Positions 31,290-48,149 of a stretch of 64,000 nucleotides of DNA are shown one piece after another (the stretch's first letter is position 1; each line of letters begins with the position of its first letter). Source of the stretch: an uncultured Actinomycetes bacterium (GTDB lineage: Bacteria; Actinomycetota; Thermoleophilia; Gaiellales; JAICJC01); assembly GCA_963797565.1 (NCBI GenBank), contig CAWCPM010000002.1, forward strand, positions 321,560 to 385,559. The letters run 5' to 3'. A program made the position numbers and the translations under genes. Under the pieces are notes generated by a model, which saw only the letters and a program-made list of their open reading frames with translations, had not been told where the DNA came from and did no database searches.

Positions 31290-33134
31290 GTGAGCCCGCA
31301 CACACACAAGCTCCGCGATGACATCCGAAACATCGCGATCATCGCCCACGTTGACCATGGCAAGACCACCCTCGTGGACGCGCTGCTGCAGCAGTCAGGC
31401 ACGTTCGCGGCGCACGCCGAGGTGGTCGACCGGATCATGGACGCCGGGCTCGAGCGCGAGCGCGGCATCACGATCCTGGCCAAGAACGCGGCCTGCCGCT
31501 ACCACGGCACCAAGATCAACATCATCGACACTCCCGGGCATGCCGACTTCGGCGGCGAGGTCGAGCGCGGCCTGACGATGGTTGACGGGGTGCTGCTGCT
31601 GGTCGACGCCAGCGAGGGGCCGCTGCCGCAGACCCGGTTCGTGCTGCGCAAGGCGCTGGCCGCGCGGCTGCCGGTGATCCTGGTCGTGAACAAGGTCGAC
31701 CGGCCCGATGCCCGCGCCGCCGAGGTGGTGAACGAGATCTACCAGCTGTTCTTCGATCTCGACGCCGACGAGTCGCAGATCGATTTCCCGATCGTCTACA
31801 CGATCGCCCGCGACGGCCTGGCCTCACTCACGGAAGACGATCAGGGTACCGACATGCATCCGCTGTTCGAGTTGATCCTCGACCGGGTGCCGCCGCCGCG
31901 CTACCACGAGGGCTCCCCGTTCCAGGCCCGCGTTGCCAACCTCGACTCCTCCCCCTACCTGGGCCGGCTCGCGCTCTGCCGCGTGCACGAGGGCGAGCTC
32001 AACAAGGGCGAGATGGTGGCGTGGTGCAAGGCCGACGGCACGATCACGCGCACCAAGATCACCGAGATGTTCGTTGCTGAGGGGCTCGATCGGGTGGCGG
32101 CCGATCACGTCGGGCCGGGCGAGGTGATGGCCGTCGCCGGCCTCCAGGAGATCATGATCGGCGAGACGATCGCCGACGCCGAGGACCCCCATCCGCTGCC
32201 GGTGATCAAGGTGGACGAGCCGTCGCTGGCGATGACGCTTGGCACCAACTCCTCGCCGTTCGCAGGCCGCAGCGGCTCGAAGCTGACGGCGCGCATGATC
32301 AAGGACCGGCTCGACCGCGAGCTGGTCGGGAACGTCAGCCTGCGGGTGTTCGACACCGACCGGCCGGACACGTGGGAGGTGCAGGGTCGCGGCGAGCTGC
32401 AGCTGGCGGTGCTGATCGAGCTGATGCGGCGCGAGGGCTTCGAACTCACGATCGGCAAGCCGCAGGTGGTCACGCGCGAGGTGAACGGCAAGGTCTGCGA
32501 GCCGGTGGAGCGGGTCACGATCGACGTGCCGGAGGAGTACTCGGGCACGGTGATCCAGGCGCTGGCGGTGCGTAAGGGGCGGATGGAGCAGATGACCAAC
32601 CACGGGTCGGGATGGGTGCGGCTGGACTATGTGATCCCGGCCCGCGGCCTGCTCGGGTTCCGTACCGAGTTTCTGACCGAGACGCGCGGCACCGGCATCC
32701 TGCACCACGTGTTCGATCGCTACGAGCCCTGGCACGGCGAGATCAGCGGCCGCCAGAACGGCTCGCTGATCGCTGACCGCGTCGGGCCGGCGTCGAGCTA
32801 CGCGATGACCAACCTGCAGGAGCGCGGAGTGCTGTTCGTGTCCCCCAGTGAGGACTGCTACGAGGGCATGCTGGTCGGCGAGAACGCCCGCGCGGACGAC
32901 CTCGACGTGAACATCGCCAAGGCCAAGCAGATGACCAACGTCCGTTCCAACGCCGATGTGCTGGTGCGCCTGGCGCCGCCACGCCTGCTCAGCCTCGACC
33001 AGGCGCTCGAGTACATCGAGGAGGACGAGTGCGTCGAGGTCACGCCCGACGTGATCCGCCTGCGCAAGGTCGAGCTGTCGGCGTCGAGGCGTCAGAGCCA
33101 GCGGTCGAAGAGCAAGCGCGACGCGCGTGAGTGA
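31290..33134 (+). CDS. typA: translational GTPase TypA/BipA
   Basis: ..IRNIAIIAHVDHGKTTLVD.., ..DTPGHADFGGEVER.., ..NKVDR... Full-length similarity to BipA. GTG start. Confidence 0.9.
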   Translation: MSPHTHKLRDDIRNIAIIAHVDHGKTTLVDALLQQSGTFAAHAEVVDRIMDAGLERERGITILAKNAACRYHGTKINIIDTPGHADFGGEVERGLTMVDGVLLLVDASEGPLPQTRFVLRKALAARLPVILVVNKVDRPDARAAEVVNEIYQLFFDLDADESQIDFPIVYTIARDGLASLTEDDQGTDMHPLFELILDRVPPPRYHEGSPFQARVANLDSSPYLGRLALCRVHEGELNKGEMVAWCKADGTITRTKITEMFVAEGLDRVAADHVGPGEVMAVAGLQEIMIGETIADAEDPHPLPVIKVDEPSLAMTLGTNSSPFAGRSGSKLTARMIKDRLDRELVGNVSLRVFDTDRPDTWEVQGRGELQLAVLIELMRREGFELTIGKPQVVTREVNGKVCEPVERVTIDVPEEYSGTVIQALAVRKGRMEQMTNHGSGWVRLDYVIPARGLLGFRTEFLTETRGTGILHHVFDRYEPWHGEISGRQNGSLIADRVGPASSYAMTNLQERGVLFVSPSEDCYEGMLVGENARADDLDVNIAKAKQMTNVRSNADVLVRLAPPRLLSLDQALEYIEEDECVEVTPDVIRLRKVELSASRRQSQRSKSKRDARE

Positions 33135-33186
33135 CCATGCGAACCGATAACGCTCAACCGTCGTACAACAATTACCGACGGAATAG

Positions 33187-33215
33187 TTGCGTTTGCCCGA
33201 AACGTTCTGTATGTT
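33187..33215 (+). promoter_or_regulatory. candidate sigma-70-type promoter TTGCGT-17-TATGTT
   Basis: The -35/-10-like hexamers have 17-nt spacing and sit in the AT-rich stretch after typA, 10 nt before a small ORF (ATG 33226). Confidence 0.35.
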
Positions 33216-33225
33216 GGGAGTCGCA

Positions 33226-33333
33226 ATGACGAAATTGTCTGACATCGAAATGTTCGCCGCCCGATCGACCTCCGTCGATCCGGTGACACATGGCCGGCTG
33301 GATAGCCAGCCCGGCACGGAGGCCCTCGCCTAG
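33226..33333 (+). CDS. possible 35-aa small ORF (MTKLSDIEMFAARSTSVDPVTHGRLDSQPGTEALA)
   Basis: Below the ORF-track cutoff. GGGAG lies 5 nt upstream of the ATG. Followed by hairpin repeat R1. No homology judgement is possible. Confidence 0.25.
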   Translation: MTKLSDIEMFAARSTSVDPVTHGRLDSQPGTEALA

Positions 33334-33371
33334 GACCTGGATTCGAGCAACAGCTCACCACAGGACCACGC

Positions 33372-33397
33372 GAGGGCGACTCACACGAGTCGCCCTC
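33372..33397 (+). repeat. hairpin repeat R1 (gagggcgact-cacacg-agtcgccctc)
   Basis: 10-bp perfect stem. Shares the core GAGGGCGA..TCGCCCTCA(R)TCGTT with R2. Confidence 0.6.
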
Positions 33398-33643
33398 AGT
33401 CGTTAACAACACATCACGCGCGATCCGAACGAAGGACACGAACACCACCATGACCGCGACAACCTTGAACACCGCCATGCTGACCGGCGCCTGGGCGAAA
33501 CACCTCGCCCCTGCGACGCCGCCGCATGCCTGTGATCGGGGTGTCGAAGCCTCTGATACCAGCGTGCAGCCCCGCGCGGACACCCTCATCTCAAGGAGCG
33601 TGCAGACCTAGAAACGGGTCAACGACACGCAATCCGGCGAGAT

Positions 33644-33669
33644 GAGGGCGATCCCAAGGGGTCGCCCTC
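33644..33669 (+). repeat. hairpin repeat R2 (gagggcga-tcccaagggg-tcgccctc)
   Basis: 8-bp outer stem with the same arms as R1. Followed by aatcgttta (R1 is followed by agtcgttaa). Confidence 0.6.
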
Positions 33670-33742
33670 AATCGTTTAAGCCCTCCCAGGTCGGGAGCAT
33701 CAGCAGAGAGGCTCGAATCCTCTCAAGGGCAATCCGGGAAAA

Positions 33743-33856
33743 CCCTGGCGCTGCTGGGGAGGACTCGCACAGTGCCGCAAGGCGTGCGGGGGCCGGCCCT
33801 CCACGAGGAGGAGTCCGGTTGGGAACTCGGGGACCTGACGAGAGAAAACGCCAGGG
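33743..33856 (+). ncRNA. candidate structured RNA of unknown class
   Basis: Nested helices seen by eye: ccctggcg(33743-50)/cgccaggg(33849-56); ggactc(33761-66)/gagtcc(33811-16), which encloses gcc-GCAA-ggc (a GNRA tetraloop hairpin) and cctcc-acga-ggagg. Confidence 0.3.
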
Positions 33857-33916
33857 GACCGATACCGACGGCTGAGAGGGAACTGGAGCTGATGTGCACG
33901 TGGTGAAGTTATTCGC

Positions 33917-33989
33917 GGCGCCGTGACCGAGTGGCTCAGGTAGCAGGTTGCAACCCTGCTCTAGGACGGTTCGATTCCGTCCGGCGCCT
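33917..33989 (+). tRNA. tRNA-Cys(GCA)
   Basis: Acceptor ggcgccg/cggcgcc, anticodon stem gcagg/cctgc with loop ttGCAac, T arm gacgg-ttcgatt-ccgtc. No encoded CCA. Confidence 0.85.
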
Positions 33990-34031
33990 CTCCGGATCCG
34001 CGGGATAGTTGATAGGTAACACCGATACCGT

Positions 34032-34104
34032 GGGGTGGTAGCTGAGACGGTCCAAGCGCCCGGTTGAAGCCCGGGAGACGAGGATTCGAGCGCCTCTCAC
34101 CCCA
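34032..34104 (+). tRNA. tRNA-Phe(GAA), atypical T stem
   Basis: Acceptor ggggtgg/tcacccc, anticodon stem cccgg/ccggg with loop ttGAAgc. T arm gagga-ttcgagc-gcctc has an A-G mismatch at the normally G53-C61 pair. Confidence 0.65.
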
Positions 34105-34119
34105 CCTTTTGACACCTTT

Positions 34120-34191
34120 GGGGGTGTGGCTCAGTGGCAGAGCATCCGCTTGTCGAGCGGTAGGTCGCGAGTTCGATTCTCGCCATCCCCG
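34120..34191 (+). tRNA. tRNA-Asp(GTC)
   Basis: Acceptor gggggtg/catcccc, D stem gctc/gagc, loop ttGTCga, T arm gcgag-ttcgatt-ctcgc. Confidence 0.8.
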
Positions 34192-34216
34192 TGCAGTAAC
34201 GGACGTTTCACCACAC

Positions 34217-34299
34217 ACCGGCATGGCGGAATGGGTAGACGCGCTGGTCTCAGAAACCAGTGGAGATTCTCCGTGGGGGTTCGACTCCCTCTGCCGGTA
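34217..34299 (+). tRNA. tRNA-Leu(CAG), type II
   Basis: Acceptor accggca/tgccggt (A1-U72), D region gcggaatgggtagacgc, anticodon stem ctggt/accag with loop ctCAGaa, long variable arm ggagattctcc, T arm ggggg-ttcgact-ccctc. Confidence 0.85.
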
Positions 34300-34312
34300 C
34301 TCGCTGAGCTTC

Positions 34313-34388
34313 GGGGGATGGGACTGCTGGGAGTGGTCACTCGGTTTGCACCCGGGACTACAGGCGGGTTCGATGCCCGCATCCTCCA
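34313..34388 (+). tRNA. tRNA-Ala(TGC), atypical variable region
   Basis: Acceptor gggggat/atcctcc, anticodon stem ctcgg/ccggg with loop ttTGCac, T arm gcggg-ttcgatg-cccgc. The 7-nt variable region and a one-nt 8-9 connector are unusual. Confidence 0.65.
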
Positions 34389-34408
34389 CTCGCACGTGCA
34401 CGACACTT

Positions 34409-34482
34409 GCCCTCGTAGCTCAATGGACCAGAGTGCCAGGCTTCGAACCTGGTGGTTGGAGGTTCGAATCCTCCCGAGGGCT
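34409..34482 (+). tRNA. tRNA-Arg(TCG)
   Basis: Acceptor gccctcg/cgagggc, D arm tagctcaatggaccagagt, anticodon stem ccagg/cctgg with loop ctTCGaa, T arm ggagg-ttcgaat-cctcc. Confidence 0.88.
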
Positions 34483-34489
34483 TCGCGAT

Positions 34490-34573
34490 GGGGATGCACT
34501 GGGAATGCGGCGATCCCAAGTGGCTGTAAACCACCCGCCTCCGGCTCTGGCAGTTCGACTCTGTCCGTCCCCA
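34490..34573 (+). tRNA. tRNA-Tyr(GTA), type II
   Basis: Acceptor ggggatg/cgtcccc, loop ctGTAaa, variable arm gcc-tcc-ggc, T arm ggcag-ttcgact-ctgtc. Confidence 0.8.
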
Positions 34574-34583
34574 CTCATCAAAT

Positions 34584-34656
34584 GCCTCTGTAGTTCACTG
34601 GACAGAACGCGAGCGTGCGAAGCTCGAGGCCGGAGGTTCGATTCCTCCCAGAGGCG
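34584..34656 (+). tRNA. tRNA-Arg(GCG)
   Basis: Acceptor gcctctg/cagaggc, anticodon stem cgagc/gctcg with loop gtGCGaa, T arm ggagg-ttcgatt-cctcc. G34 rather than the usual bacterial A34. Confidence 0.8.
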
Positions 34657-34666
34657 TGCACCCCAC

Positions 34667-34738
34667 GGCGAGTGGGGTCTGGCGATCCGGCAGCTCTCAT
34701 ACGGCTGCGCCAAGCCGGTTCGATTCCGGCGCTCGCTA
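34667..34738 (+). tRNA. tRNA-Met(CAT)-like, atypical D arm
   Basis: Acceptor ggcgagt/gctcgct (G1-U72 and U7-G66 wobbles), anticodon stem cagct/ggctg with loop ctCATac, T arm gccgg-ttcgatt-ccggc. The D arm folds as 5 bp plus a 4-nt loop. Initiator, elongator or Ile2 identity cannot be decided. Confidence 0.55.
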
Positions 34739-34743
34739 TCCAT

Positions 34744-34818
34744 GGTGGCCGTAGCTCAAAACGGTAGAGCCCCTGGTTGTGGACCAGGCGGTTGCCGGTT
34801 CGAACCCGGCCGGTCACC
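34744..34818 (+). tRNA. tRNA-His(GTG) with encoded G-1
   Basis: G-1 at 34744 opposite C73. Acceptor gtggccg/cggtcac, D stem gctc/gagc, loop ttGTGga, T arm gccgg-ttcgaac-ccggc. Confidence 0.88.
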
Positions 34819-34831
34819 CCTCCTGACACCC

Positions 34832-34903
34832 AGGGGCGTGATGTAAAGGCCAGCATGCGAGGCTCCAACCCTCGTCGTCCGGGTTCGACCCCTGGCGCCC
34901 CTG
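34832..34903 (+). tRNA. tRNA-Trp(CCA)
   Basis: Acceptor aggggcg/cgcccct (A1-U72), anticodon stem cgagg/cctcg with loop ctCCAac, T arm ccggg-ttcgacc-cctgg. The only member followed by CCA (34904-34906). Confidence 0.8.
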
Positions 34904-34923
34904 CCAAGCGCTGCACCACCCCA

Positions 34924-35017
34924 GTCGCGGGCCGACGCACGTCGGTTCTCGTGGACCCACTCACAATGGGGCCGGGTTCGATCCCCGGCATTCCGGCATG
35001 CACCTCATGACCGCGAC
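34924..35017 (+). ncRNA. tRNA-derived RNA 1 (Y-RNA-like paralog; not a functional tRNA fold)
   Basis: Has a 5' acceptor-like strand gggccga, D arm cacg-tcggttct-cgtg, a hairpin with loop ctcacaa and T arm ccggg-ttcgatc-cccgg. It has no variable region and no 3' acceptor strand. The ends gtcgcgg/ccgcgac pair 7/7, and the flanks are shared with element 2. Confidence 0.5.
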
Positions 35018-35036
35018 GCTGACGACGCAAACGCCC

Positions 35037-35170
35037 GACGCGGGCCGACGCGCACTGGTTACCACTGTGAATGGTCCAGGTAGCAGGTTCGACTCCTGCC
35101 CGGCCGGAGCGATCCGGCCAGTAGCTCAACGGTAGAGCGGGAACTCCAGTCCGCACCACATGACCGCGTC
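35037..35170 (+). ncRNA. YrlA-type Y RNA candidate (circularly permuted tRNA-like RNA)
   Basis: Order along the strand: ggtcc, 5-nt aggta, T arm gcagg-ttcgact-cctgc (35083-99), ccggccg, loop gagcgatc, cggccag (a closed acceptor-like helix), ta, D arm gctc-aacggta-gagc (35124-38), g, ggaac. The terminal stem gacgcgg/ccgcgtc pairs 7/7. It ends 36 nt before the rsr ATG. Confidence 0.7.
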
Positions 35171-35206
35171 ATTCCATCCACTCGATCTCCCGAAAGGAGG
35201 CCACCC

Positions 35207-36871
35207 ATGTCGTATCTGACCCGACTCCACAACCTCGCGACCACACAGCGCGAGCGCCTGCGCACCGACCAGGTGCCGAACTCCGAGGGCGGCTACGTCT
35301 GGGAGGTCGACATCTGGACGCGGCTGCGCCGGTTCCTGATCCTCGGCTCCGAGGCCGGCTCGTTCTACGCGTCGGAGCGGAAGCTGACGATCGCAAACAC
35401 ACGAGCGCTCGATGCCTGCATCGAACAGGACGGCGCCCGCACCGTCGAGCTGATCGCCGAGATCAGCGAGGCCGGCCGGGCACCGAAGAACGACCCGGCC
35501 GTGTACGCGCTGGCACGATGCGCGTCGGCGGCCGACGTCGTCACACGCCGGGCGGCGCTGGCAGCCCTGCCGCGAGTGTGCCGAACCGGCACCCACCTGT
35601 TCCAGTTCGCGACCATCGTGAACGAGCAGCGCGGATGGGGCCGGGCGCTGCGGCGCGCGGTGGGAGCGTGGTACGCAGCACGGGACGCGGACGCGATCGC
35701 CTACCAGGCGGTCAAGTACCGCCAGCGGGAGGGGTTCACCCACCGCGACGTGCTGCGGCTCGCGCACCCGGCGCGGCTGGTCTCGGCCGGCAACCCGACG
35801 CTGGACATCTCGACCGAGCAGGCTCGCCTGTTCGAGTGGATCGTCCGGGGCGGGGACACCGACGGGCTGCCGCGCATCGTCGAGGGCTACACCCGCGCAC
35901 AGCGGGCCGGATCGGCCGATGAGGCCGCCCGGCTGGTGCGTGAGTACCAGCTGCCGCGGGAGGCGCTGCCGTCGGAGCACCTGACCAGCTCCGCGGTTTG
36001 GGAGGCGCTGCTCGAGACGATGCCGATGACGGCGATGATCCGGAACCTGGCGACGATGACGCGCGTGGGCCTGCTCACGCCGGGATCGCCGTCGGTGCGG
36101 CTGATCACCGAGCGGCTGTCGGATGGCGCGCGGATCCGCAAGGCCCGCGTCCACCCGATCGCGCTGCTGGTGGCGGCGCGCACCTACGCCTCCGGGCGGG
36201 GTGTCCGCGGCCACGCCTCCTGGACGCCGGTAACCGCCATCGTCGACGCGCTCGACGAGGCCTTCTACCTCGCGTTCGGGAACGTCCAGCCGACCGGCAA
36301 GCGGCTGCTGCTCGCGCTCGACGTGTCGGGGTCGATGACCTTCGGCTCGATTGCGGGCATGCCGGGGCTCACGCCCCGGGACGCATCGGCAGCGATGGCG
36401 CTGGTCACGCTGGCCGTCGAGCGACACGTCGAGGTGGTCGGCTTCCACGCCGGCCGCGGCGGCTGGGTCGCTCGTCGTCGGGGACGGTTCCAGGGGCGCG
36501 CCGACGCCCTCACGCCGCTCCCGCTGTCGGCTCGGCAGCGCCTGGACGACGCGGTCCGCCGCGTGTCCGACCTGCCGTTCGGCGGCACCGACTGTGCCCT
36601 GCCGATGCGCTACGCGCTGGAGCAGGGACGGGCGGTCGACACGTTCGTGATCTACACCGACTCGGAGACCTGGGCTGGGGACATGCACCCGGCCGAGGCG
36701 CTGCGCCGCTACCGCCAGAGCACCGGCATCGCGGCACGGCTGGTCGTGGTCGGAATGGTCGCGAACCGCTTCACCATCGCCGACCCGAACGACGCCGGCA
36801 TGCTCGACGTCGTCGGGTTCGACACCTCGACACCGCAGGTGATCGGCGGGTTCGCCCGTGGCGAGCTGTAA
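35207..36871 (+). CDS. rsr: Ro60-related protein Rsr (TROVE + vWA domains)
   Basis: ..QVPNSEGGYVWEVDIWTRLRRFLILGSEAGSFYASERKLT..ISEAGRAPKNDPAVYALA.. closely follows the Rsr/Ro60 N-terminus as I remember it. The C-terminal vWA domain has a MIDAS motif, LLLALDVSGSM. SD GGAGG is upstream. Confidence 0.85.
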   Translation: MSYLTRLHNLATTQRERLRTDQVPNSEGGYVWEVDIWTRLRRFLILGSEAGSFYASERKLTIANTRALDACIEQDGARTVELIAEISEAGRAPKNDPAVYALARCASAADVVTRRAALAALPRVCRTGTHLFQFATIVNEQRGWGRALRRAVGAWYAARDADAIAYQAVKYRQREGFTHRDVLRLAHPARLVSAGNPTLDISTEQARLFEWIVRGGDTDGLPRIVEGYTRAQRAGSADEAARLVREYQLPREALPSEHLTSSAVWEALLETMPMTAMIRNLATMTRVGLLTPGSPSVRLITERLSDGARIRKARVHPIALLVAARTYASGRGVRGHASWTPVTAIVDALDEAFYLAFGNVQPTGKRLLLALDVSGSMTFGSIAGMPGLTPRDASAAMALVTLAVERHVEVVGFHAGRGGWVARRRGRFQGRADALTPLPLSARQRLDDAVRRVSDLPFGGTDCALPMRYALEQGRAVDTFVIYTDSETWAGDMHPAEALRRYRQSTGIAARLVVVGMVANRFTIADPNDAGMLDVVGFDTSTPQVIGGFARGEL

Positions 36872-36876
36872 CACGG

Positions 36877-36911
36877 CCCGGGCAGGGAGCGTTCGTGACT
36901 CCCTGCCCGGG
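36877..36911 (+). terminator. 13-bp perfect hairpin after rsr (cccgggcagggag-N9-ctccctgcccggg)
   Basis: Starts 6 nt after the rsr stop. No U-tract follows, so it could be a terminator, an attenuator or a processing/stability element. Confidence 0.5.
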
Positions 36912-36933
36912 GGCGGTCGAACGGCACGCACCT

Positions 36934-37006
36934 GGACGCATAGCTCAGCAGGTAGAGCGCTCGCCCGACATGCGAGAGGTGCCAGGTTCGACCCCTGGTG
37001 CGTCCA
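36934..37006 (+). tRNA. tRNA-Val(GAC) with C33
   Basis: Acceptor ggacgca/tgcgtcc, D arm tagctcagcaggtagagc, anticodon stem ctcgc/gcgag with loop ccGACat (C rather than U at position 33), T arm ccagg-ttcgacc-cctgg. Confidence 0.7.
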
Positions 37007-37008
37007 TT

Positions 37009-37082
37009 GCCCGCGTAGCTCAGAGGATGAGAGCGCTCCGCTCCTACCGGAGAAGCCGCACGTTCGAGTCGTGCCGCGGGCG
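37009..37082 (+). tRNA. tRNA-Arg(CCT)
   Basis: Acceptor gcccgcg/cgcgggc, anticodon stem ctccg/cggag with loop ctCCTac, T arm gcacg-ttcgagt-cgtgc. Only 2 nt after tRNA-Val. Confidence 0.88.
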
Positions 37083-37085
37083 CCT

Positions 37086-37158
37086 GGGGTCATAGCTCAA
37101 CTGGCAGAGCGCCCGGCTCTTAACCGGGAGGTTGGGGGATCGTTGCCCTCTGACCCCA
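37086..37158 (+). tRNA. tRNA-Lys(CTT), non-canonical T loop
   Basis: Acceptor ggggtca/tgacccc, D arm tagctcaactggcagagc, anticodon stem cccgg/ccggg with loop ctCTTaa. T arm ggggg-atcgttg-ccctc, where A and U replace the usual T54 and A58. Confidence 0.7.
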
Positions 37159-37178
37159 TCTGCGGGTCTGCACATCGT

Positions 37179-37262
37179 GGAAGCGATCCGGCTGGATCAG
37201 GAGCCTGTCTCGAAAACAGGTAGGAGGGTCACCTCTTGGGCGTTCGAGTCGCCCCGCTTCCG
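37179..37262 (+). tRNA. tRNA-Ser(CGA), type II
   Basis: Acceptor ggaagcg/cgcttcc, anticodon stem cctgt/acagg with loop ctCGAaa, long variable arm aggagggtcacctctt, T arm gggcg-ttcgagt-cgccc. Confidence 0.85.
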
Positions 37263-37321
37263 CTCGCCTTCGCGGTCTTCGACGGCATCCGGCCGACGCG
37301 GTGGCCCGGTAGAGTCGCGCG

Positions 37322-37909
37322 ATGGCAGACTTTGAGTGCGCAGTCGTTGCCGAGTCTGAGCGAGATCGGGCGACTCGCGTCCTGGTGTCGGCGTTCGAGG
37401 ATGACCCTGTTGAGCGCTGGCTCTATCCGGATGACGCCGTCTATCGAGACCATTTTCCGGCGTTCATCGCGGCGTTCGGCGGTGACGCGTTCCACGATCA
37501 GACCGTCTGGCGGCTGGGGGATTTCGACGCGGTGGCGTTCTGGTTTGCGCCGGGGCGCGAGCCAGATGGCGCCGCGGTGGTACGAGTACTGGTGGAGACG
37601 ACTGCCGAACATCTGCACGCTGATTCGTTCGCGACGTTGGAGCAGATGGCCGAGGGGCATCCCGCAGGCCAGCACTGGTACCTGCCGTGGTTTGGAGTGC
37701 AGCGCACCCTCCAGGGACGGGGACTCGGCACGCATCTCATGCGCCACTGCCTGGAGATCGTGGACGCGAGTGGCTTCCCGGCGTACCTGGAGACGCCGAA
37801 CCCGCGAACCGTGCCGTTCTACGAGCGCGCCGGATTCACGGTCACCGGGACTGCTCAGGCGGGAGCCTGCCCTCCGATCACCATGATGCAGCGGGCCCCG
37901 CGCAGATAG
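37322..37909 (+). CDS. GNAT family N-acetyltransferase
   Basis: Acetyl-CoA motif ..VQRTLQGRGLGTHLM.. and C-terminal ..YLETPNPRTVPFYERAGF... Confidence 0.8.
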   Translation: MADFECAVVAESERDRATRVLVSAFEDDPVERWLYPDDAVYRDHFPAFIAAFGGDAFHDQTVWRLGDFDAVAFWFAPGREPDGAAVVRVLVETTAEHLHADSFATLEQMAEGHPAGQHWYLPWFGVQRTLQGRGLGTHLMRHCLEIVDASGFPAYLETPNPRTVPFYERAGFTVTGTAQAGACPPITMMQRAPRR

Positions 37910-37954
37910 CGCGACTGCACGCGCGAGGCGCCCTTGACGACGGTGCCGGGAACG

Positions 37955-38042
37955 GGATGGGTGGCAGAGTGGGAATGCAGCGCCCTGCTACGGCGTAGGC
38001 CGGCCGCGAGCCGGTCCGCGGGTTCGATCCCCGCCCCATCCG
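37955..38042 (+). tRNA. tRNA-Ser(GCT), type II
   Basis: Acceptor ggatggg/cccatcc, anticodon stem gcgcc/ggcgt with loop ctGCTac, long variable arm ggccggccgcgagccggtc, T arm gcggg-ttcgatc-cccgc. Confidence 0.85.
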
Positions 38043-38056
38043 TCGACGCATGACTT

Positions 38057-38128
38057 TCCGGAGTGGCCGAGTGGACAGGCGCACGGTTGTTACCCGTGAC
38101 CACGTGGGTTCGATCCCTACCTCCGGAG
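38057..38128 (+). tRNA. tRNA-Asn(GTT)
   Basis: Acceptor tccggag/ctccgga (U1-A72), anticodon stem cacgg/ccgtg with loop ttGTTac, T arm gtggg-ttcgatc-cctac. Confidence 0.8.
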
Positions 38129-38139
38129 CTGGCTCAAAA

Positions 38140-38215
38140 GGGGGGCAGGTGTCCGTGGTCTTCGGCACGCTCGTCTGATACGCGAGAGGGCTTGGTTCGA
38201 CTCCAGGGTCCCCCA
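38140..38215 (+). tRNA. tRNA-Ile(GAT)
   Basis: Acceptor ggggggc/gtccccc, large 12-nt D loop, anticodon stem ctcgt/gcgag with loop ctGATac, T arm cttgg-ttcgact-ccagg. Confidence 0.78.
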
Positions 38216-38220
38216 CTCGA

Positions 38221-38291
38221 TGCGAGGTCGTCTAACGGCAGGACGCCTGGCTCTGACCCAGGTAATCGGGGTTCGAAACCCTGCCTCGCAG
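38221..38291 (+). tRNA. tRNA-Gln(CTG)
   Basis: Acceptor tgcgagg/cctcgca (U1-A72, as in bacterial tRNA-Gln), anticodon stem cctgg/ccagg with loop ctCTGac, T arm cgggg-ttcgaaa-ccctg. Confidence 0.82.
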
Positions 38292-38298
38292 CCATCAC

Positions 38299-38370
38299 GG
38301 CACCATCGGCTAACGGATAGGCCGCCGGGTTCTCAGTCCGGAGATCGGAGTTCGAATCTCCGTGGTGCTA
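38299..38370 (+). tRNA. tRNA-Glu(CTC)
   Basis: Acceptor ggcacca/tggtgct (G1-U72), anticodon stem ccggg/tccgg with loop ttCTCag, T arm cggag-ttcgaat-ctccg. Confidence 0.8.
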
Positions 38371-38377
38371 TCACCCT

Positions 38378-38450
38378 CGGGATGTGGCGCAGTTGGCAGC
38401 GCGCGCGGTTCGGGACCGCGAGGCCGCACGTTCGAATCGTGCCATCCCGA
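38378..38450 (+). tRNA. tRNA-Pro(CGG)
   Basis: Acceptor cgggatg/catcccg (C1-G72, typical of bacterial tRNA-Pro), D stem gcgc/gcgc, anticodon stem cgcgg/ccgcg with loop ttCGGga, T arm gcacg-ttcgaat-cgtgc. Confidence 0.88.
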
Positions 38451-38477
38451 CTCTAAAGAGTCGAAATCCCTAGACCC

Positions 38478-38549
38478 GCCTCCGATGTGTTTCTGGCAGC
38501 ACGCTCGGTTTGTACCCGAGAAGATACGGTTCGACTCCGTACGGAGGCT
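38478..38549 (+). tRNA. tRNA-Thr(TGT)
   Basis: Acceptor gcctccg/cggaggc, anticodon stem ctcgg/ccgag with loop ttTGTac, T arm tacgg-ttcgact-ccgta. Confidence 0.85.
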
Positions 38550-38551
38550 CT

Positions 38552-38884
38552 GGTGTCATCCGGAGGGCATCCCATCGCGGGCCGCGGCAGCGCGGCTCGA
38601 GGAAGGTCCGGACTCGCATGCGCGGGCGACCGCGCATCAAACCGCCCCGGGCGAATACCCCGGGCGACGCGCAGGTGGCGCTGCGCGGACGTGCCTGGCA
38701 ACAGCGACGATGACCGCCCCGGCCGCTCTGGCCGCGGATGCCGCGGGTGAAACGGGCTACAGGCAGCGGGCGAGCAACCCCAAGCGTCCGGTCTCACGAA
38801 GACCGGCAGGTCGGGGGCATAGATGGATGATGGGACGCGCCTCGGCGCCGACAGAATCCGGCCTATCGCCCCCCGGCTGACACC
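38552..38884 (+). ncRNA. rnpB: RNase P RNA, bacterial type A
   Basis: P1 ggtgtcatccggaggg / ccccccggctgacacc. Conserved blocks: cGAGGAAgGTCCGGaCtC (P4 5' strand), atCAAACCGCC, GGGTGAAACGGG, GGCAACAG, GAGCAACCCCAA, TAGATGGATGA, ACAGAATCCGGCCTATCG. About 333 nt. Confidence 0.85.
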
Positions 38885-38894
38885 GCATCACCGA

Positions 38895-38966
38895 GCGACC
38901 GTGGTCAAACGGCAACGACTCCTGGCCTCCAACCAGGCGATACGGGTTCGATCCCCGTCGGTCGCT
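38895..38966 (+). tRNA. tRNA-Gly(TCC) with C33
   Basis: Acceptor gcgaccg/cggtcgc, anticodon stem cctgg/ccagg with loop ccTCCaa (C at position 33), T arm acggg-ttcgatc-cccgt. Confidence 0.7.
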
Positions 38967-39030
38967 CCTCGTTCTCGATCGGTACCGGCGCGACCGCCGT
39001 CGCGATAGGCTGGTTCGGGGTGATCGTGCG

Positions 39031-40266
39031 ATGGAGGACCTTCCCAGCGGAACCGTCACACTCCTCTTCACCGACGTCGAAGGGTCGACGTTGCTCGTCC
39101 AGGCGCTGGGTGCCGCCTACCAGTACGCGCTGGACGGGCACCGCCAGATCCTGAGGGACGCGGTCGCGTCGCACGCGGGCCGCGAGGTGGATTGCCGCGC
39201 CGACGAGTTCCTGGCCTGCTTCCCACGCGCATCCGACGGCCTGGCGGCGGCGATCGCCGCGCAGCTGGCGCTGACGTCGGAGGATTCCCAGCTGCGGGTG
39301 CGGATGGGACTTCACACCGGTGAGCCGGAGCTGATCGGCAACGCGTACATCGGGATCGATGTCAACCGGGCATCGCGAATCTGCGCGGCCGGCCACGGCG
39401 GGCAGATCCTGGTGTCCCAGACCACCCGCGATCTGGCGTCGACAGCCGTCCAGTTCCGCGATCTCGGCACCTACCTGCTCGCCGGCGTCGAGCAGGCCGA
39501 GCGGATCTTCGAGGTGCGCGCCCCCGGTCTGCGCACCTCGTCGCTGCCGCTCCGGGCCGAGCACGACACGGGTACCCCGGTCCGCCGCCGGCGTGGCCTG
39601 CGGCCGCGGCGCGCGCCGGCCTCGTCGCAGCTCGCCGAGACCGCCTGGCGGGCACGGAAGCTGGTCGAGCCGGGGCCGCTCCGTGACGCGCTCACGGGGC
39701 TTGCGGCGGCGCTGTTCGACGCCGACCGCGCCGTCCACCGAGCCGAAGCGCTGCTGGGGAAGATCGACCGCCACCGCATCGCCCGCAGGTTGGCCGAGCA
39801 GCGCGAGCTGTCGCTCGTGTCTCCCCCGGTGGCCGAGCTTGCCGCCGGGACAGACGCGAAGCTGGCCTGCCTCGACCGTCTCGGCGATGACGCCCAGGTC
39901 GTATCCGACCTGGGCGCCGAGGCTGCCGCGCTGCTCGATCGGTCATTCAGCGCCCACGCGGTCGAGCAGATCTGTGAACGGCTGAACCTGGCGATAGGCA
40001 CCCTGGACGGGCAGATCACGGTCACCGCCCGCGCGCACGACGCGCTCAGCTACCGGTTGGCGCGCACCCGCTGGCGCGGCGTGTACCGGCTGGACGCGCT
40101 CTACGTCGTCCCCTACCACGACGAGCTGGGGATCGAGCGCCAGCCCGAGTTCACGGACGCCGGTGAGGCCCGCCGCTTCCGCGAAGGCGTCAAGCTGGCC
40201 CGCCAGGCCAGGAATCGAGGACTCGGCTTCGACCTTCCATGGGATGGATCATCGGGTGGGTCCTGA
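39031..40266 (+). CDS. class III adenylate/guanylate cyclase-domain protein with uncharacterised C-terminal half
   Basis: N-terminal ..GTVTLLFTDVEGSTLLVQ..DEFLACF..RVRMGLHTGEP..GIDVNRASRICAAGHGGQILVS.. is a CYTH-unrelated class III cyclase fold. Residues from about 190 to 411 are helical and Arg/Ala-rich with no motif recognised. Confidence 0.65.
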   Translation: MEDLPSGTVTLLFTDVEGSTLLVQALGAAYQYALDGHRQILRDAVASHAGREVDCRADEFLACFPRASDGLAAAIAAQLALTSEDSQLRVRMGLHTGEPELIGNAYIGIDVNRASRICAAGHGGQILVSQTTRDLASTAVQFRDLGTYLLAGVEQAERIFEVRAPGLRTSSLPLRAEHDTGTPVRRRRGLRPRRAPASSQLAETAWRARKLVEPGPLRDALTGLAAALFDADRAVHRAEALLGKIDRHRIARRLAEQRELSLVSPPVAELAAGTDAKLACLDRLGDDAQVVSDLGAEAAALLDRSFSAHAVEQICERLNLAIGTLDGQITVTARAHDALSYRLARTRWRGVYRLDALYVVPYHDELGIERQPEFTDAGEARRFREGVKLARQARNRGLGFDLPWDGSSGGS

Positions 40267-40295
40267 CTCAAACGGGTCGCCGGCCGCCCGTGCTC

Positions 40296-40369
40296 GCGCG
40301 AGTAGCTCAGCCAGGTAGAGCACCTGCGCCACATGCAGGGTGCCGGCGGTTCGAACCCGTCCTCGCGCA
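40296..40369 (+). tRNA. tRNA-Val(CAC) with C33
   Basis: Acceptor gcgcgag/ctcgcgc, D arm tagctcagccaggtagagc, anticodon stem cctgc/gcagg with loop gcCACat (C at position 33), T arm ggcgg-ttcgaac-ccgtc. Abuts the protease gene stop. Confidence 0.7.
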
Positions 40370-43300
40370 TTACGACAGGGAGACGGTTGCGCTGCCCGTG
40401 TAGTCGTTGTACGGGTCGAGCACGATCGTGTAGGTGCCGGCCACCGGCGCCGTCAGCCCGAACGAGGTCGAGCCCAGCACCCACGACGGCGACAGCAGCG
40501 CCGTGCCGTCCGGACGCAGCACCGAGACGCGCATGATCGGGACGCTGACCGCGCTCAGGTTCAGCATCAGCGACTGCCCGGCCGTGGCAGTGAACGTGAC
40601 CGCCCCACCCTGGCCGGGAGCATTCATCGCAGCCGTGAACCCAGGCCCGCCCTGCGTGATCGACCCGGCCGCATCCGGCGGCACGTCGTAGACGGTCACC
40701 GACAACGGTCCTGTTGAGGCGTCGAACGGATCCACGGCGATGGTGTAGGTGCCGGACACCGGCAGCGTGGTCACGTCGATGAAGGTGTTACCCGGCGCCA
40801 TGGTCGCGAGCAGGATCGTGGCGTCCGGCTTGCTGACGGTGAACCGCACCGACATCGCCGTCGTGAGGCGGAAGCTGACCCGCTCGCCGGCCACGCCGTT
40901 GAAGCTGACGAGCCCGTTCTGGCCGGGCACCGTGATCGGGATCGAGGCCGCGGCGCCGCCGGGCGTGGTCGTCGCAGACGCGTCGGCCGGGACGCTGAAG
41001 GCGGTCAGCGTCATCGTCACCGCCGAGCCGCCCGACGGGTCGATCACGATCGTGTAGGTGCCGGTGGCCGGCAGCGTGTGGGTGTCGAGGAAACCGCCCG
41101 ACGAGGAGACGTAGAAGGTCGCGAAGATGGAGCCGTCCGGCGCGCGCACATCGAGCCGCGTCTGCGGCAGCGCGCTGCCGGTGACCGTCATGCTCATCCG
41201 CGTGCCGGCCACCCCGGCGAACGTGATGCCGGCGTTCTGTCCGGCGCCCAGCGAGATCGTGAGCGGCGCTCCGCCCACGGTGATGCTGCCGGTGAGATCG
41301 ACCGGCACACCCAGCACCTGGACGGTGGCGCTGCCCACCGCCGCCCCCTGCGGATCGATGCGGATCGTGTAGGTGCCGCTGGCCGGAAGCGCGATCGCGT
41401 CGATGAAGCCGCCCGAGCCGTAGGCGATGGTGGAGCCCGCAGGTGACACCAGCGTCACCGACGTGGCGGCCATGCCGGAGGTGCTGTAGCTGACGCTGAC
41501 CGACTGGCCGGCCGCGCCCGGGAACGTGACCGAGGCGTTCTGGCCGGGCACCGTGGTGGTGAGCGTGACCGGTGCTGCTGCCACCGAGGTGGTCGCCGTC
41601 GGATCGGGCGGCACGTCGTACAGCGTGTAGCTGACGCTGCCGGTGCCGACGTCCTGGGGGTCGGCCACCACCGTGTAGGTGCCGGTCTGCTTGAGCGTGG
41701 CCGCGTCCACGAACGAGGTGCCGGCGCCGGTGTAGCCCGGCCCCGCGAGCACCGTGCCGTCCGGGTTCAGGATCGACGTCTTCAGCAGGTAGAAGGTGGA
41801 GCTGACACCGAGGCTGACGCGCCGGCCGGCCACGCCGCTGAACGTGAACAGCGCGTTCTGGCCCGCCGCCGTTGTGGTGGCCGACGCGGGAGCGCCGCCC
41901 GGCGTGATGGTGGTCGTGACGTCGGGCGGCACGTCGTAGAGCGTCAGCGTGACCGGCCCGGTGCGCTCGTCCTGTGGGTCGGCCAGGATCGTGTACGTGC
42001 CGTCGGAGGGCAGCTGCACGGTGTCGATGAAACCGTTGCCGGCGCTCGTGTAGAGCGGCCCCGCCAGCTGCGTCCCGCCCGGCCCGATGATGATCGTCTT
42101 CAGGAAGCTGATGCTGCTGGACGTGGCCAGCGCCACCCGCCGCCCGGCCGCGCCCGTGAAGCTGGCGACCGCGTTCTGGCCGGGCACGGTGGTGGTCAGC
42201 GTCACCGGAGGCCCGCCGGGGCTGATCGCCGCCGTCGCATCCGGCGGCACGTTGAAGAGCTGGATCGCCATGCTGCCGCCGCCCGCCTGCAGCGGGTGCA
42301 CGCGCACCACGTAGCTGCCGGACTGCTGCAGCGTGAACGAGTCGATGAACGCGCTGCCGGTGGACAGCGTCTTCGAGGCGGCCGTGGACCCGTCCGGGTT
42401 GCTGATGGTGACGGTGCTGCTGGTGATCGTCGACGCCGACAGCAGGGCGCTCACGCGCGTGCCGGCGGTGCCGTCGAAGGCGAGCAGCTGGTCCTCGCCG
42501 GCACCCGAGGTGACGGTGACCGGCGCTCCGCCGATCACGATCGGGCTCGGCGATACGCCGGTGACGCTGCCGCTGTCGGTGCCGCCGCTGCTGGTGGCCG
42601 TGGCGGTAACGGTGGTGCTGCCCGGGGCGGGCGTGAACTGGCCGGTGTAGCTGCCGTCGCCCTGGGCCGTCAGCGCGACCGGCTGGCCGTTGGCGGCCGC
42701 GGTGACGGTCACGCCCGCGAGGTCGCCGCAGACGCCGGCCAGCAGGCGCACGGTCACCGGGTGGCCGGCGGCGGCCACGAAGCCCTGGCCGGGAGCGTCG
42801 ATCACCAGCTGCGGCTTGTTGCTGCAGGTGAGCGCGTTTCCGGCGTCGAGACGGCCCTGGCTGGCGCTGGTGCCGGCGAGTGCCGCGGGGCGGTCGACCG
42901 TGCGCAGCAGCAGCGCCTTGATGGTGTCGGCGGTGGCGGCCGGATGCGCGGCCAGCACCAGCGCGGCCGCACCGGCCACGTGAGGCGAGGCCATCGAGGT
43001 GCCGCTCTCGGACTTGTAGGCCTTGCCCGGCCAGGTCGAGTAGATGCTGACGCCGGGCGCCGCCAGATCGACGCTGCTCTGCCCGTAGTTCGAGAAGTAG
43101 GCGAGATGGTCGGTCGAGTCGCTGGCACCCACCGAGATGATGTTGGGCAGATCGAAGTCGGCCGGGTAGGTGGGCGTCGTATCGCTGTTCGTGCCGTCGT
43201 TGCCTGCAGCGGCAACGAACAGGTCGCCGTGCGCGTTCGCGTCGGCGATGGCGTCATACAGGGCCTGCGAGTACTCGGTGTCGCCCCAGGAGTTGTTCGT

Positions 43301-44882: not shown

Positions 44883-44930
44883 CCGCGAGATCATCCACAA
44901 TCGGATATCAACGCCCCGGAAGGAGGCGAC

Positions 44931-46283
44931 ATGACCGACCGGCCGGCAACCACGATGGTGGTCGAGGATCGGCCCTACCGCGAGCTCGACGACGGGCTGA
45001 TCGGTGTCTACGGCTACACCTACGACGAGCAGGCGATCACCCAGATCCGCACCGTGTCGCGGCACGGCTGGGTGGCCGGCGCGTCGCTGATGGCCGACAA
45101 CCACGTCGGCTACTCGATGCCGATCGGCGGAGTCGCCGCGTACCGCGAGATGGTCTCGCCCTCGGGCGTCGGCTACGACATCGGCTGCGGCGTGATGGCG
45201 GTGCGCACGGCGCTATCGATCGACGAGGTGCGGGGCGACCTGGGACGGCTGGCCGACGAGATCGCGCGCGGCCTCAGCTTCGGGGTCGGCCGCAAGAATG
45301 CCACCCGCGTCGAGCACCGGCTGTTCGACTCGGAGACATGGGCCGCGGTCCCGGAGCTGACCGAGCAGGTCGCCGGGCGCAAGGGCTCGTGGTCGCTGCG
45401 GGAGCGCGCGGAGGCGCAGCTGGGCACGGTCGGATCCGGCAACCACTACGTCGACCTGCTGGTCGAGCCGGCCGACGGCGCGGTCTGGATCGCCGCACAC
45501 TTCGGCAGCCGCGGCTTCGGCCACGGTGTGGCGACGGGCTTCCTGAACGTCGCAGCGGGCCGCGAGTTCCACGCCGGGCAGATCAGCGGCGAGTCGATGC
45601 ACGCCGTGCCGTCGCTGCTGCCGCTATCGGAGGCGGCGGCGGTCGAGCTCGGCTACGCCGACCCGGCCTGGGCGGCGGAGCAGGGCCGCCGGTATCAGCA
45701 GGCGATGGTGCTGGCCGGCGAGTACGCCTATGCCGGGCGGGAGTACGTGATCTCGGAGGTGCTGGGCATGTTGGGAGCTCCGGAGGTGGTCGAGACGGTG
45801 CACAACCACCACAACTACGCGTGGGATGAGGAGCACGCCGGCGAGCAGCTGCACGTGGTTCGCAAGGGCGCGACGCCCGCGTTCCCGGGCCAGACCGGGT
45901 TCATCGGCGGCTCGATGGGTGACTGGGCGGTCGTGGTCGAGGGCGTCGAGTCGGACCTGGCGGCACGGACCTTCCGCTCGACGGTGCACGGGGCGGGACG
46001 GGTTATGAGCCGCTCCAAGGCTAAGGGCAACCGCAAGGGCACCTTCAAGGGCCTGATCAGCCGGCAGATGATGGCCGAGCGGCTGCATGAGTTCCGAGCC
46101 GAAACCGGCTCGCCGCTCGAGGTGCGAGGCGGCGACGTGGACGAGTCGCCGTTCGTGTACCGGAAGCTGGACGAGGTCGTGCGGGCGCACGAGCAGACCG
46201 ACACCATCAAGGTCACCCATCGGCTGCTGCCGATCGTGGTCGTGATGGCGGGCGCCGACGTGCACGATCCGTTCAAGGACTAG
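44931..46283 (+). CDS. rtcB: RNA 3'-phosphate/5'-OH ligase RtcB
   Basis: ..ADNHVGYSMPIGGV.., ..GYDIGCG.., ..GSGNHY.., ..HNHHNY.., ..GSMG.. metal and guanylylation-site motifs. SD GGAAGGAGG is upstream. Confidence 0.9.
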   Translation: MTDRPATTMVVEDRPYRELDDGLIGVYGYTYDEQAITQIRTVSRHGWVAGASLMADNHVGYSMPIGGVAAYREMVSPSGVGYDIGCGVMAVRTALSIDEVRGDLGRLADEIARGLSFGVGRKNATRVEHRLFDSETWAAVPELTEQVAGRKGSWSLRERAEAQLGTVGSGNHYVDLLVEPADGAVWIAAHFGSRGFGHGVATGFLNVAAGREFHAGQISGESMHAVPSLLPLSEAAAVELGYADPAWAAEQGRRYQQAMVLAGEYAYAGREYVISEVLGMLGAPEVVETVHNHHNYAWDEEHAGEQLHVVRKGATPAFPGQTGFIGGSMGDWAVVVEGVESDLAARTFRSTVHGAGRVMSRSKAKGNRKGTFKGLISRQMMAERLHEFRAETGSPLEVRGGDVDESPFVYRKLDEVVRAHEQTDTIKVTHRLLPIVVVMAGADVHDPFKD

Positions 46284-46447
46284 GGAGCCCTCCCCACTCC
46301 GCGCCGTCGCCCTACCTCAATCCGTGGGGCAATCTCAGTAACCGGCCAGCGCTCCGGCACCCGTCGGAGGGCCTGACCGGACACGCAGTCGGTCGATCCA
46401 TATGACGTCCCGCGCCGTGCGGGACGAGGGGTCTAACTCGTAGTCAT

Positions 46448-48091: not shown

Positions 48092-48149
48092 TCCTCAGAA
48101 AAGGAGCGGTCGCCCTTCACGGGGCGGCCGCTCGTTTCGTTCGTTCCGG

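Follow-up and report, generated by a model that had tools for sequence, protein, structure and literature searches.

A dense tRNA gene array linked to Ro60 in a Gaiellales genome combines purifying selection with departures from near-invariant tRNA positions

Can tRNA genes that break positions regarded as near-invariant in elongator tRNAs (U33, U8:A14, U54:A58 and G53:C61) still be working genes, and if so, what are the altered nucleotides good for? This question is raised by a cluster of 24 tRNA genes on contig CAWCPM010000002.1 of an uncultured bacterium of the Gaiellales (Actinomycetota, Thermoleophilia; assembly GCA_963797565.1, hereafter G000; 3.17 Mb, 92% complete, about 70% G+C). The window analyzed here is a stretch of 64,000 nucleotides (G000:C2:321560-385559), and all the genomes compared are metagenome-assembled genomes (MAGs). 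A preliminary description of the cluster, which surrounds rsr, the gene of a Ro60 ortholog, had listed a number of irregular nucleotides and had read them as signs either of diverged but possibly functional accessory tRNAs or of tRNAs evolved to evade or titrate anticodon-loop nucleases or modifiers. Our analysis indicates that the 24 genes are probably a functional, horizontally acquired spare tRNA set, that is, an L-array linked to Ro60 and to a YrlA-like RNA.

An L-array has been defined as a unit in which no fewer than 20 tRNA genes occur at a density of 2 or more per kb (Tran et al. 2015); in the window, 24 genes occupy 6453 bp, which gives 3.7 per kb. ARAGORN recognized 22 tRNAs, all on the + strand, between positions 33917 and 40369. 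Two more genes, Tyr-GTA (34490-34575) and Ser-CGA, were overlooked both by ARAGORN and by the Rfam tRNA model RF00005 and were added on the basis of fold and orthologs (the Tyr-GTA ortholog of the related genome G007 is recognized by ARAGORN), and with them every one of the 20 amino acids is covered. RF00005 matched 19 of the tRNAs over their full length with 45-71 bits (gathering threshold 29 bits); the remaining five (Ala, CAT, Ile, Tyr and Ser-CGA) fall below the threshold. The spacers within the blocks are 1-41 nt long, the orientation is uniform, and a scan revealed no terminator-like sites, in keeping with the co-transcription of L-array genes. As in L-arrays, the genes are largely additional isodecoders, 22 of the 24 anticodons being present in the housekeeping set of G000 as well. 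For 16 of the 20 amino acids the array anticodon matches the codon most used in this high-G+C genome, and the Ala, Gly and Thr boxes are served by U34 species.

The first point to settle is whether the irregular nucleotides are real. The anticodon loops of Val-GAC (ccGACat, 36965-36971) and Gly-TCC (ccTCCaa, 38926-38932) carry C33 as had been claimed; the third case, Val-CAC (gcCACat), has C33 as well, although its loop lies at 40328-40334, two nucleotides away from the interval 40326-40332 given previously. The Lys T loop (atcgttg, 37139-37145) has A54 and U58 in exchanged positions, A53 of Phe (34084) faces G61 (34092), and Ala has a variable region of 7 nt (actacag) and retains G3·U70. The tRNA with the anticodon CAT possesses the reported D arm of 5 bp and 4 nt (stem GGGTC/GATCC, loop TGGC) and G1·U72 and shows neither C1xA72 nor the triple-GC initiator marks; a one-base 8/9 linker and A73 can be added to its description. 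A1-U72 in Leu and Trp, U1-A72 in Asn and the GCG anticodon of Arg had also been read correctly, and the identity elements said to be kept are indeed in place, namely, the encoded G-1 (34744) with C73 in His, C1-G72 in Pro and U1-A72 in Gln. Alternative folds might in principle restore U33 or canonical T loops. No such fold exists, because the 5-bp anticodon stems are perfect and independent minimum free energy (MFE) folds give the same register as ARAGORN and Infernal. The array tRNAs adopt cloverleaf folds, and their identity marks for aminoacylation are retained.

Several departures can be added to the earlier list. Thr-TGT has A8 (38485) and U14 (38491) exchanged, Ile-GAT has an 8/9 linker of 3 nt, and G32 occurs in Arg-GCG and Val-CAC. 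As in CAT, mini or extended, in any case odd, D arms were found in Tyr, Ser-CGA, Ile and Ala. In total, the near-invariant nucleotides and pairs named above are broken in six genes (the three with C33, Lys, Thr and Phe) and kept in the others.

A second question follows directly: are these features peculiar to the array, or are they traits of the lineage, as would be the case if the same deviations turned up in housekeeping tRNAs? Comparison with the 43 stand-alone tRNAs of G000 and with those of relatives divided the list. C33 in Gly-TCC and Val-CAC and the departures in Lys, Thr and Phe were found in the array only, whereas C33 of Val-GAC, Arg-GCG, G1·U72 of the CAT tRNA, A1-U72 of Trp and U1-A72 of Asn are shared with housekeeping tRNAs and are therefore not oddities of the array. 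The G000 housekeeping copies of Trp (A1-U72) and of Asn and Gln (U1-A72) have these pairs as well, which are usual bacterial identity features, as in E. coli, and the housekeeping CAT tRNA (contig C6) agrees with the array CAT in G1·U72 and in its first four acceptor pairs. The housekeeping tRNA-Val(GAC) gene (G000:C14:70711-70783) has the loop tcGACaa, i.e., C33. In 23 of the 41 genomes searched initially, this gene is present with 100% identity, and the loop tcGACaa was present in all 55 housekeeping Val-GAC loci fetched (L092-L121 and L265-L289; about 50 genomes of the order and the class), in which gene identity goes down to 89%. Judged from these loci, C33 is fixed in an essential elongator tRNA, Val-GAC, across the class. 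Similarly, the housekeeping Arg tRNA for CGY codons has the anticodon GCG (ctGCGga) in G004, G008, G018, G023 and G034 (loci L137 and L140-L143), and no Arg-ACG was seen among the CCG, GCG, TCG, TCT and CCT hits in these five near-complete genomes, which suggests that the lineage may decode CGY codons without inosine-34.

What is left appears to be specific to the array: C33 in Gly-TCC, whose housekeeping counterpart has U33 (ctTCCaa), and in Val-CAC, A54/U58 in Lys, A8/U14 in Thr, A53·G61 in Phe, the odd D arms, A1-U72 in Leu, and C38. The last of these, with loops ending in AC, occurs in 11 of the 24 array loops versus 5 of the 43 housekeeping loops of G000 (p=0.003) and is common to the window and the G018-type arrays; it is therefore a trait of the array family. 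Overall, about half of the oddities listed belong to the normal features of bacteria or of the lineage, and the remainder are genuine selected departures. The array tRNAs are 55-84% identical to housekeeping tRNAs of the same isotype, an identity too low for a recent duplication of housekeeping genes, which was thus rejected as their source, and their median RF00005 score is 56 bits versus 65 bits for the housekeeping set (p=5e-4).

One side observation concerns Arg-GCG and Phe-GAA, for which the G000 assembly contains the array copies only. This assembly, which is 92% complete, contains no housekeeping Phe gene; a stand-alone Arg-GCG is absent from the assembly, itself a 92%-complete MAG, and from both sites syntenic to those of G004 and G008, where the gene lies at different loci; neither of these two sites holds a tRNA in G000. 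An assembly gap would explain this singularity, as would a real takeover, in which array copies would possibly have replaced lost housekeeping genes.

Are the array genes maintained by selection? The alternative is that the array is what remains of a transfer and is now decaying, with its odd positions as the first lesions of pseudogenes. In the soil metagenome contig Ga0207693_10009593 (L185), which is 97.8% identical over window positions 32997-40879, the 24 tRNA genes show 10 differences in 1805 nt (0.55%), and the inter-tRNA spacers show 46 in 533 nt (8.6%). For comparison, rsr differs at 29 of 1665 nt (1.7%), the GNAT gene inside the array at 13 of 588 nt (2.2%) and the neighboring native cyclase gene at 31 of 1236 nt (2.5%). 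The tRNA genes have consequently diverged about 16-fold more slowly than their spacers (Fisher p=2e-21). Not a single difference separates the two sequences in Val-GAC, Gly-TCC, Lys, Phe, Tyr and the CAT tRNA; the first block of tRNA genes has three differences only, Ser-CGA has one, and all five genes under the RF00005 threshold are conserved. In one of these, Ile, all four changes preserve pairing, including a double change from G-C to A-U (38144 with 38210). In Val-CAC the sole difference is position 33 itself, C in the window and T in the soil contig.

Comparisons over greater distances gave a similar picture. Relative to G007, the first block has diverged by 1.7% in the tRNAs and by 17% in the spacers (the remainder of the G007 array is not in that fragmented assembly). 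Between the window and the arrays of G018 (L012) and G016 (L010), 182 stem pairs have changed on both sides and are still paired, a count that leans towards pairing because the ARAGORN fold of each sequence was used. Covariation between arrays is also seen in the mini D stem of the CAT tRNA (GGGTC/GATCC versus GAGCC/GGCTC). The slow divergence of the tRNA genes and the compensatory changes therefore identify them as selected RNAs and not as pseudogenes, and the array tRNAs are under strong purifying selection. This result upholds the first interpretation offered in the preliminary description, that of diverged but functional accessory tRNAs, together with the identity elements kept and the lack of a counterpart of the insertion in relatives of the same genus.

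The relic explanation, already disfavored, is thus very improbable. It can draw on the five genes under the Rfam threshold, on the Phe mismatch, which is real and affects the universal 53:61 pair, on the loss of the array from most relatives, on the broken rsr of G016, and on the Anabaena array, in which 3 of 26 genes are pseudogenes (PMC8421152). However, the low rate of change extends to the sub-threshold genes and to Phe, which has not changed at all; pairing is maintained by compensatory changes in Ile and in the D stem of CAT; the coverage of all 20 amino acids is intact; and the swapped tertiary pairs covary, as the following survey shows.

Is the window array an isolated case? Among 159 neighborhoods of Ro60 homologs, taken from genomes and metagenomes of many phyla, 72 contain at least five clustered tRNA genes. 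In this survey, for which registers were set by ARAGORN, 84 of 753 non-redundant array tRNAs (11.2%) have a nucleotide other than U at position 33, which is C in 82 of them. The corresponding figure for housekeeping tRNAs is 1 of 74 (p=0.004), which amounts to an approximately 8-fold excess of non-U33 in arrays linked to Ro60. The baseline is small, consisting of the tRNAs of G000 and of G041, an array-bearing Verrucomicrobial genome, and its G041 part (31 of 31 inspected tRNAs canonical) is a selected one because these 31 are among the best-scoring tRNA hits. Measured against the same baseline, the three C33 of the 24 window genes have a binomial probability of ~0.004. Non-U33 is moreover conserved in given isoacceptors across loci, such as Leu-GAG (tcGAGag) and Thr-GGT (tcGGTaa), and one locus (L201, Ga0126376_10026794) has C33 in 8 of 17 tRNAs, including a Val-GAC with the ccGACat loop of the window. 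The tertiary swaps recur in the same manner: A54 accompanies U58 in 54 cases, U54 is never found with a nucleotide other than A58, and A8 accompanies U14 in 14 cases. Such covariation of tertiary pairs indicates selection on the fold. The swaps preserve the L-shape and at the same time alter nucleotides that are read by universal enzymes, and departures of this sort are typical of the class in many phyla.

The window array belongs to this class of Ro60-linked tRNA arrays, which crosses phyla. It resembles the Verrucomicrobiota arrays in its layout of Ro60 plus array, in recurrent C33 and in the A54/U58 and A8/U14 swaps. In the latter arrays (L026, L033-L060 and L083-L088), G55 occurs in about half of the tRNAs and covaries with loss of G18G19 (U55 with GG in 233 tRNAs, G55 without GG in 230, mixed in 15); unlike them, the window tRNAs keep U55 and G18G19. 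Because of this, and because its swaps affect single members only, the window array is a mild member of the class. As a side observation, tRNA-Ile(TAT) is common in arrays of the Verrucomicrobiota type.

Another question is how the array arrived at its present position. Ro60 together with an array was found in 4 of 41 relatives. In G004 and G011, members of the same genus that have no array, the gene order runs from typA to the cyclase gene, which follows within ~45 nt, and on to the S8 peptidase gene, and then continues with the sequence that starts at window position 48106. It follows from this order that the window holds three insertions, which carry the main part of the array, the lone Val-CAC gene and the RtcB gene with its neighbor, respectively. 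The cyclase gene had to be rejected as an island gene, being present at the empty site in both genomes, whereas the GNAT gene has no counterpart at this site there. The array of G018 is located at another locus. The distribution is therefore sporadic and points to horizontal acquisition, as in L-arrays. No phage, integrase or HNH genes were detected in the flanks, and a prophage origin was ruled out, since the flanks consist of native chromosomal genes without phage genes.

Several observations weigh against regarding the array as functional or its departures as meaningful. In addition to the pairing-prone count mentioned above and the five genes that the tRNA model scores below threshold, a scan for promoters found none. 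Most relatives lack the array, and G016 has a frameshift in rsr, so that the array is dispensable. Furthermore, C33 of Val-CAC is polymorphic between near-identical arrays, with C in the window and U in L185; of the other arrays, L012 and L075 have C33 and L010 has U33. Most of the array-specific departures are private to the sub-lineage and missing from the G016 and G018 orthologs: C33 of Val-GAC and Gly-TCC occurs only in the lineage of the window and L185 (the array orthologs have gtGACat and ctTCCaa), A54/U58 of Lys is found in L185 as well, with a canonical ttcga T loop in the G016 and G018 orthologs, and A53·G61 of Phe recurs in both G007 and L185. The odd architectures of Tyr, CAT and Ser-CGA, as well as C38, are common to the arrays.

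According to the second interpretation in the preliminary description, the departures might be adaptive marks that make the tRNAs poor substrates of, or decoys for, anticodon-loop nucleases or universal modifiers, so that the array would survive an attack on the housekeeping tRNAs. We regard this as possible but rather unlikely. In its favor, the anticodon loop differs from that of the housekeeping tRNA with the same anticodon in 18 of 22 pairs, and the excess of C38, the enrichment of non-U33 and its conservation in given isoacceptors point in the same direction. The idea gains appeal from the fact that it is precisely the sites of the universal modifications s4U8, m5U54 and m1A58 that are swapped. 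Rsr, the YrlA-like RNA and RtcB are suitable neighbors. In addition, phage tRNAs have been proposed to escape VapC, PrrC and colicins through changes in their loops (PMC10264068), at least one toxin cleaves between positions 32 and 33 (PMC11724271), and a 'sponge' role has been proposed for the Anabaena array tRNAs (PMC8421152). Compared with the nuclease-insensitive phage tRNAs described by van den Berg et al. (2023), the window array has the differing loops (18/22, with C38 and C33 enriched) and is not phage-encoded. On the other hand, C33 is present in a class-wide housekeeping tRNA and is therefore compatible with ordinary translation in this lineage and not in itself a foreign mark. The flip of C33 in Val-CAC between near-identical arrays and the lack of most departures in orthologous arrays also speak against such marks, as do the single PIN-domain match in the genome, which means that there is no expansion of PIN toxins, and the canonical state of the inspected tRNAs of the Ro-bearing Streptomyces phage Gilson.

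The tRNA genes are interleaved with other elements, whose coordinates are given in Table 1 with those of the whole region. The Rsr protein has the TROVE and vWA domains of Ro60 proteins (PF05731 at 1e-46 and PF25045 at 2e-60); it scores 573 bits with the NCBIfam Rsr model, under the equivalog cut-off of the latter. The YrlA-like element (RF02553, 35.4 bits, E 5.6e-5, gathering threshold 69) ends 63 nt 5' of rsr, and a similar weak match is present in G016. The tRNA-like stretch around it (34904-35206, + strand) differs from L185 at 1 of 303 nt and is the most conserved part of the island. In G007, an additional 68-nt tRNA-Gly(GCC) directly follows Trp instead (at 34910). The RNase P RNA-like element matches RF00010 over its full length with 23.5 bits (gathering threshold 100; the rnpB genes of relatives score 230-286 bits). 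It differs from L185 at 4 of 323 nt, and this divergence of 1.2%, compared with 8.6% in the spacers, shows that it is constrained. No second copy of RNase P RNA was found in the G000 assembly, and no such element was detected at E<=0.01 in the orthologous arrays L010, L012 and L075.

Table 1 Features of the array region (positions in the window)
Feature	Position	Strand	Basis or remark
Insertion 1: leader, 23 tRNA genes, YrlA-like RNA, rsr, GNAT, RNase P-like RNA	33136-39017		
First tRNA block, 11 genes: Cys-GCA, Phe-GAA, Asp-GTC, Leu-CAG, Ala-TGC, Arg-TCG, Tyr-GTA, Arg-GCG, CAT, His-GTG, Trp-CCA	33917..34906	+	ARAGORN, Rfam, fold/orthologs (Tyr)
YrlA-like element, just 5' of rsr	35075..35143	+	RF02553, below threshold
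rsr, Ro60 ortholog (TROVE + vWA)	35207..36871	+	Pfam PF05731, PF25045
tRNA-Val(GAC), C33 at 36966	36933..37007	+	RF00005, 61.8 bits
tRNA-Arg(CCT)	37009..37084	+	ARAGORN, RF00005
tRNA-Lys(CTT), swapped T-loop pair A54 (37139)/U58 (37143)	37085..37160	+	ARAGORN structure
tRNA-Ser(CGA)-like, long variable arm, 5-bp/4-nt D arm	37178..37265	+	MFE cloverleaf; L012 ortholog
GNAT acetyltransferase inside the array	37322..37909	+	Pfam PF00583
Third tRNA block, 7 genes: Ser-GCT, Asn-GTT, Ile-GAT, Gln-CTG, Glu-CTC, Pro-CGG, Thr-TGT	37955..38550	+	ARAGORN
Divergent RNase P RNA-like element	38559..38881	+	RF00010, 23.5 bits
tRNA-Gly(TCC), C33 at 38927	38895..38968	+	ARAGORN structure
Native cyclase gene	39031-40266		Present at the array-less site of G004, G011
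Insertion 2: lone Val-CAC gene	40249-40370		
tRNA-Val(CAC), G32 + C33 (40329), between native cyclase and S8 peptidase genes	40296..40369	+	
Insertion 3: RtcB + Big_9/cadherin-domain protein	44886-48105		
RtcB RNA ligase	44931..46283	+	Pfam PF01139, 239 bits

These neighbors bring up one more alternative, namely, that the array RNAs are mainly ligands or substrates of the proteins encoded beside them: clients of Ro60/Y RNA quality control, substrates of the GNAT enzyme, or donors in non-ribosomal aminoacyl transfer. It is suggested by the presence of rsr, a YrlA-like tRNA mimic and a GNAT gene within the array, by the occurrence of Ro60 homologs in or beside tRNA arrays of many phyla and of actinophages, and by the authors of the work on the Anabaena L-array, who leave non-canonical roles open (PMC8421152). 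Nevertheless, we find it highly improbable. A set for all 20 amino acids that is tuned to the codons of the host and carries synthetase identity elements corresponds to the needs of translation and exceeds those of a ligand. As to the GNAT protein, it has no specific NCBIfam match and was rejected as a member of any known tRNA-acting family.

By analogy with Anabaena, where translational stress induces the operon, which is co-regulated with rtcB, and 23 of the 26 array tRNAs occur in charged form in vivo (PMC8421152), the tRNAs of the putatively functional spare set described here are probably made, charged and used. This precedent and the neighboring genes suggest, as the most likely role, a back-up or stress-time tRNA pool that would be active alongside Rsr/Y RNA and RtcB whenever translation is impaired or the housekeeping tRNAs have suffered damage. 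A broader and, in our opinion, doubtful conjecture is that Ro60-linked arrays are a parallel adaptor set marked by altered universal nucleotides (C33, C38, 8/14 and 54/58; G55 and A18 in other phyla), which would escape or soak up nucleases and modifiers and, with Rsr/Y RNA, RtcB and a private RNase P-like RNA, would make up a mobile module for surviving RNA damage.

Regardless of the exact role, the locus provides natural tRNAs in which purifying selection maintains breaks of near-invariant positions, and in Ro60-linked arrays from various phyla the same breaks are encountered again. Such natural 'alternative' tRNAs offer material for probing what these positions contribute to ribosome function, modification and recognition by toxins. 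The bacterial Ro60/Y RNA system, which is poorly understood, is here tied to whole spare tRNA sets. C33 of Val-GAC, fixed across the class as far as the loci fetched indicate, and Arg-GCG bear on the evolution of decoding and tRNA editing in Thermoleophilia. For annotation, it is relevant that standard tRNA models miss five real genes in this array.

How does the array compare with known systems? With the L-array of Anabaena PCC 7120 (PMC8421152; PMC4758250) it shares at least 20 dense, co-oriented supernumerary tRNA genes, patchy occurrence and horizontal acquisition, redundant isodecoders in place of new anticodons, and rtcB nearby. It is unlike the PCC 7120 array in that its tRNA genes are interleaved with rsr, a GNAT gene, a YrlA-like RNA and an RNase P RNA-like element; an HNH homing-endonuclease gene was not encountered in the window array. 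Large tRNA arrays with a Ro60 homolog (36-51% identity) in or near them also occur in actinophages, such as Streptomyces phage Gilson (MK061412) and cluster C1 mycobacteriophages, e.g., Nappy. Gilson, like the window, has Arg-GCG, and the divergence of the window's loops parallels the hypothesis of nuclease-insensitive loops in phages (PMC10264068). In contrast to these phages, the window array is located between native chromosomal genes, and no phage genes were found in the window; unlike the window tRNAs, the inspected tRNAs of Gilson are canonical at positions 33, 54 and 58.

A third comparison can be made with the rsr-yrlBA-rtcBA locus of Salmonella (PMC4201824, PMC7790460), which likewise combines a Ro60 ortholog, a tRNA-like Y RNA directly upstream of it, for which the window has a candidate, and RtcB nearby. 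The window differs from it in that the YrlA match is sub-threshold (35 bits versus 69), that no RtcR or RtcA was identified, that RtcB lies 8 kb away past two native genes, and that a whole set of tRNAs is interleaved. Our literature searches retrieved no paper in which tRNA arrays and Ro60, or A54, U58 and the T loop, were named together, and no description of an enrichment of C33, C38 or swapped tertiary pairs in tRNA arrays. The array of the window can be regarded as a variant of the L-array that is tied to Ro60.

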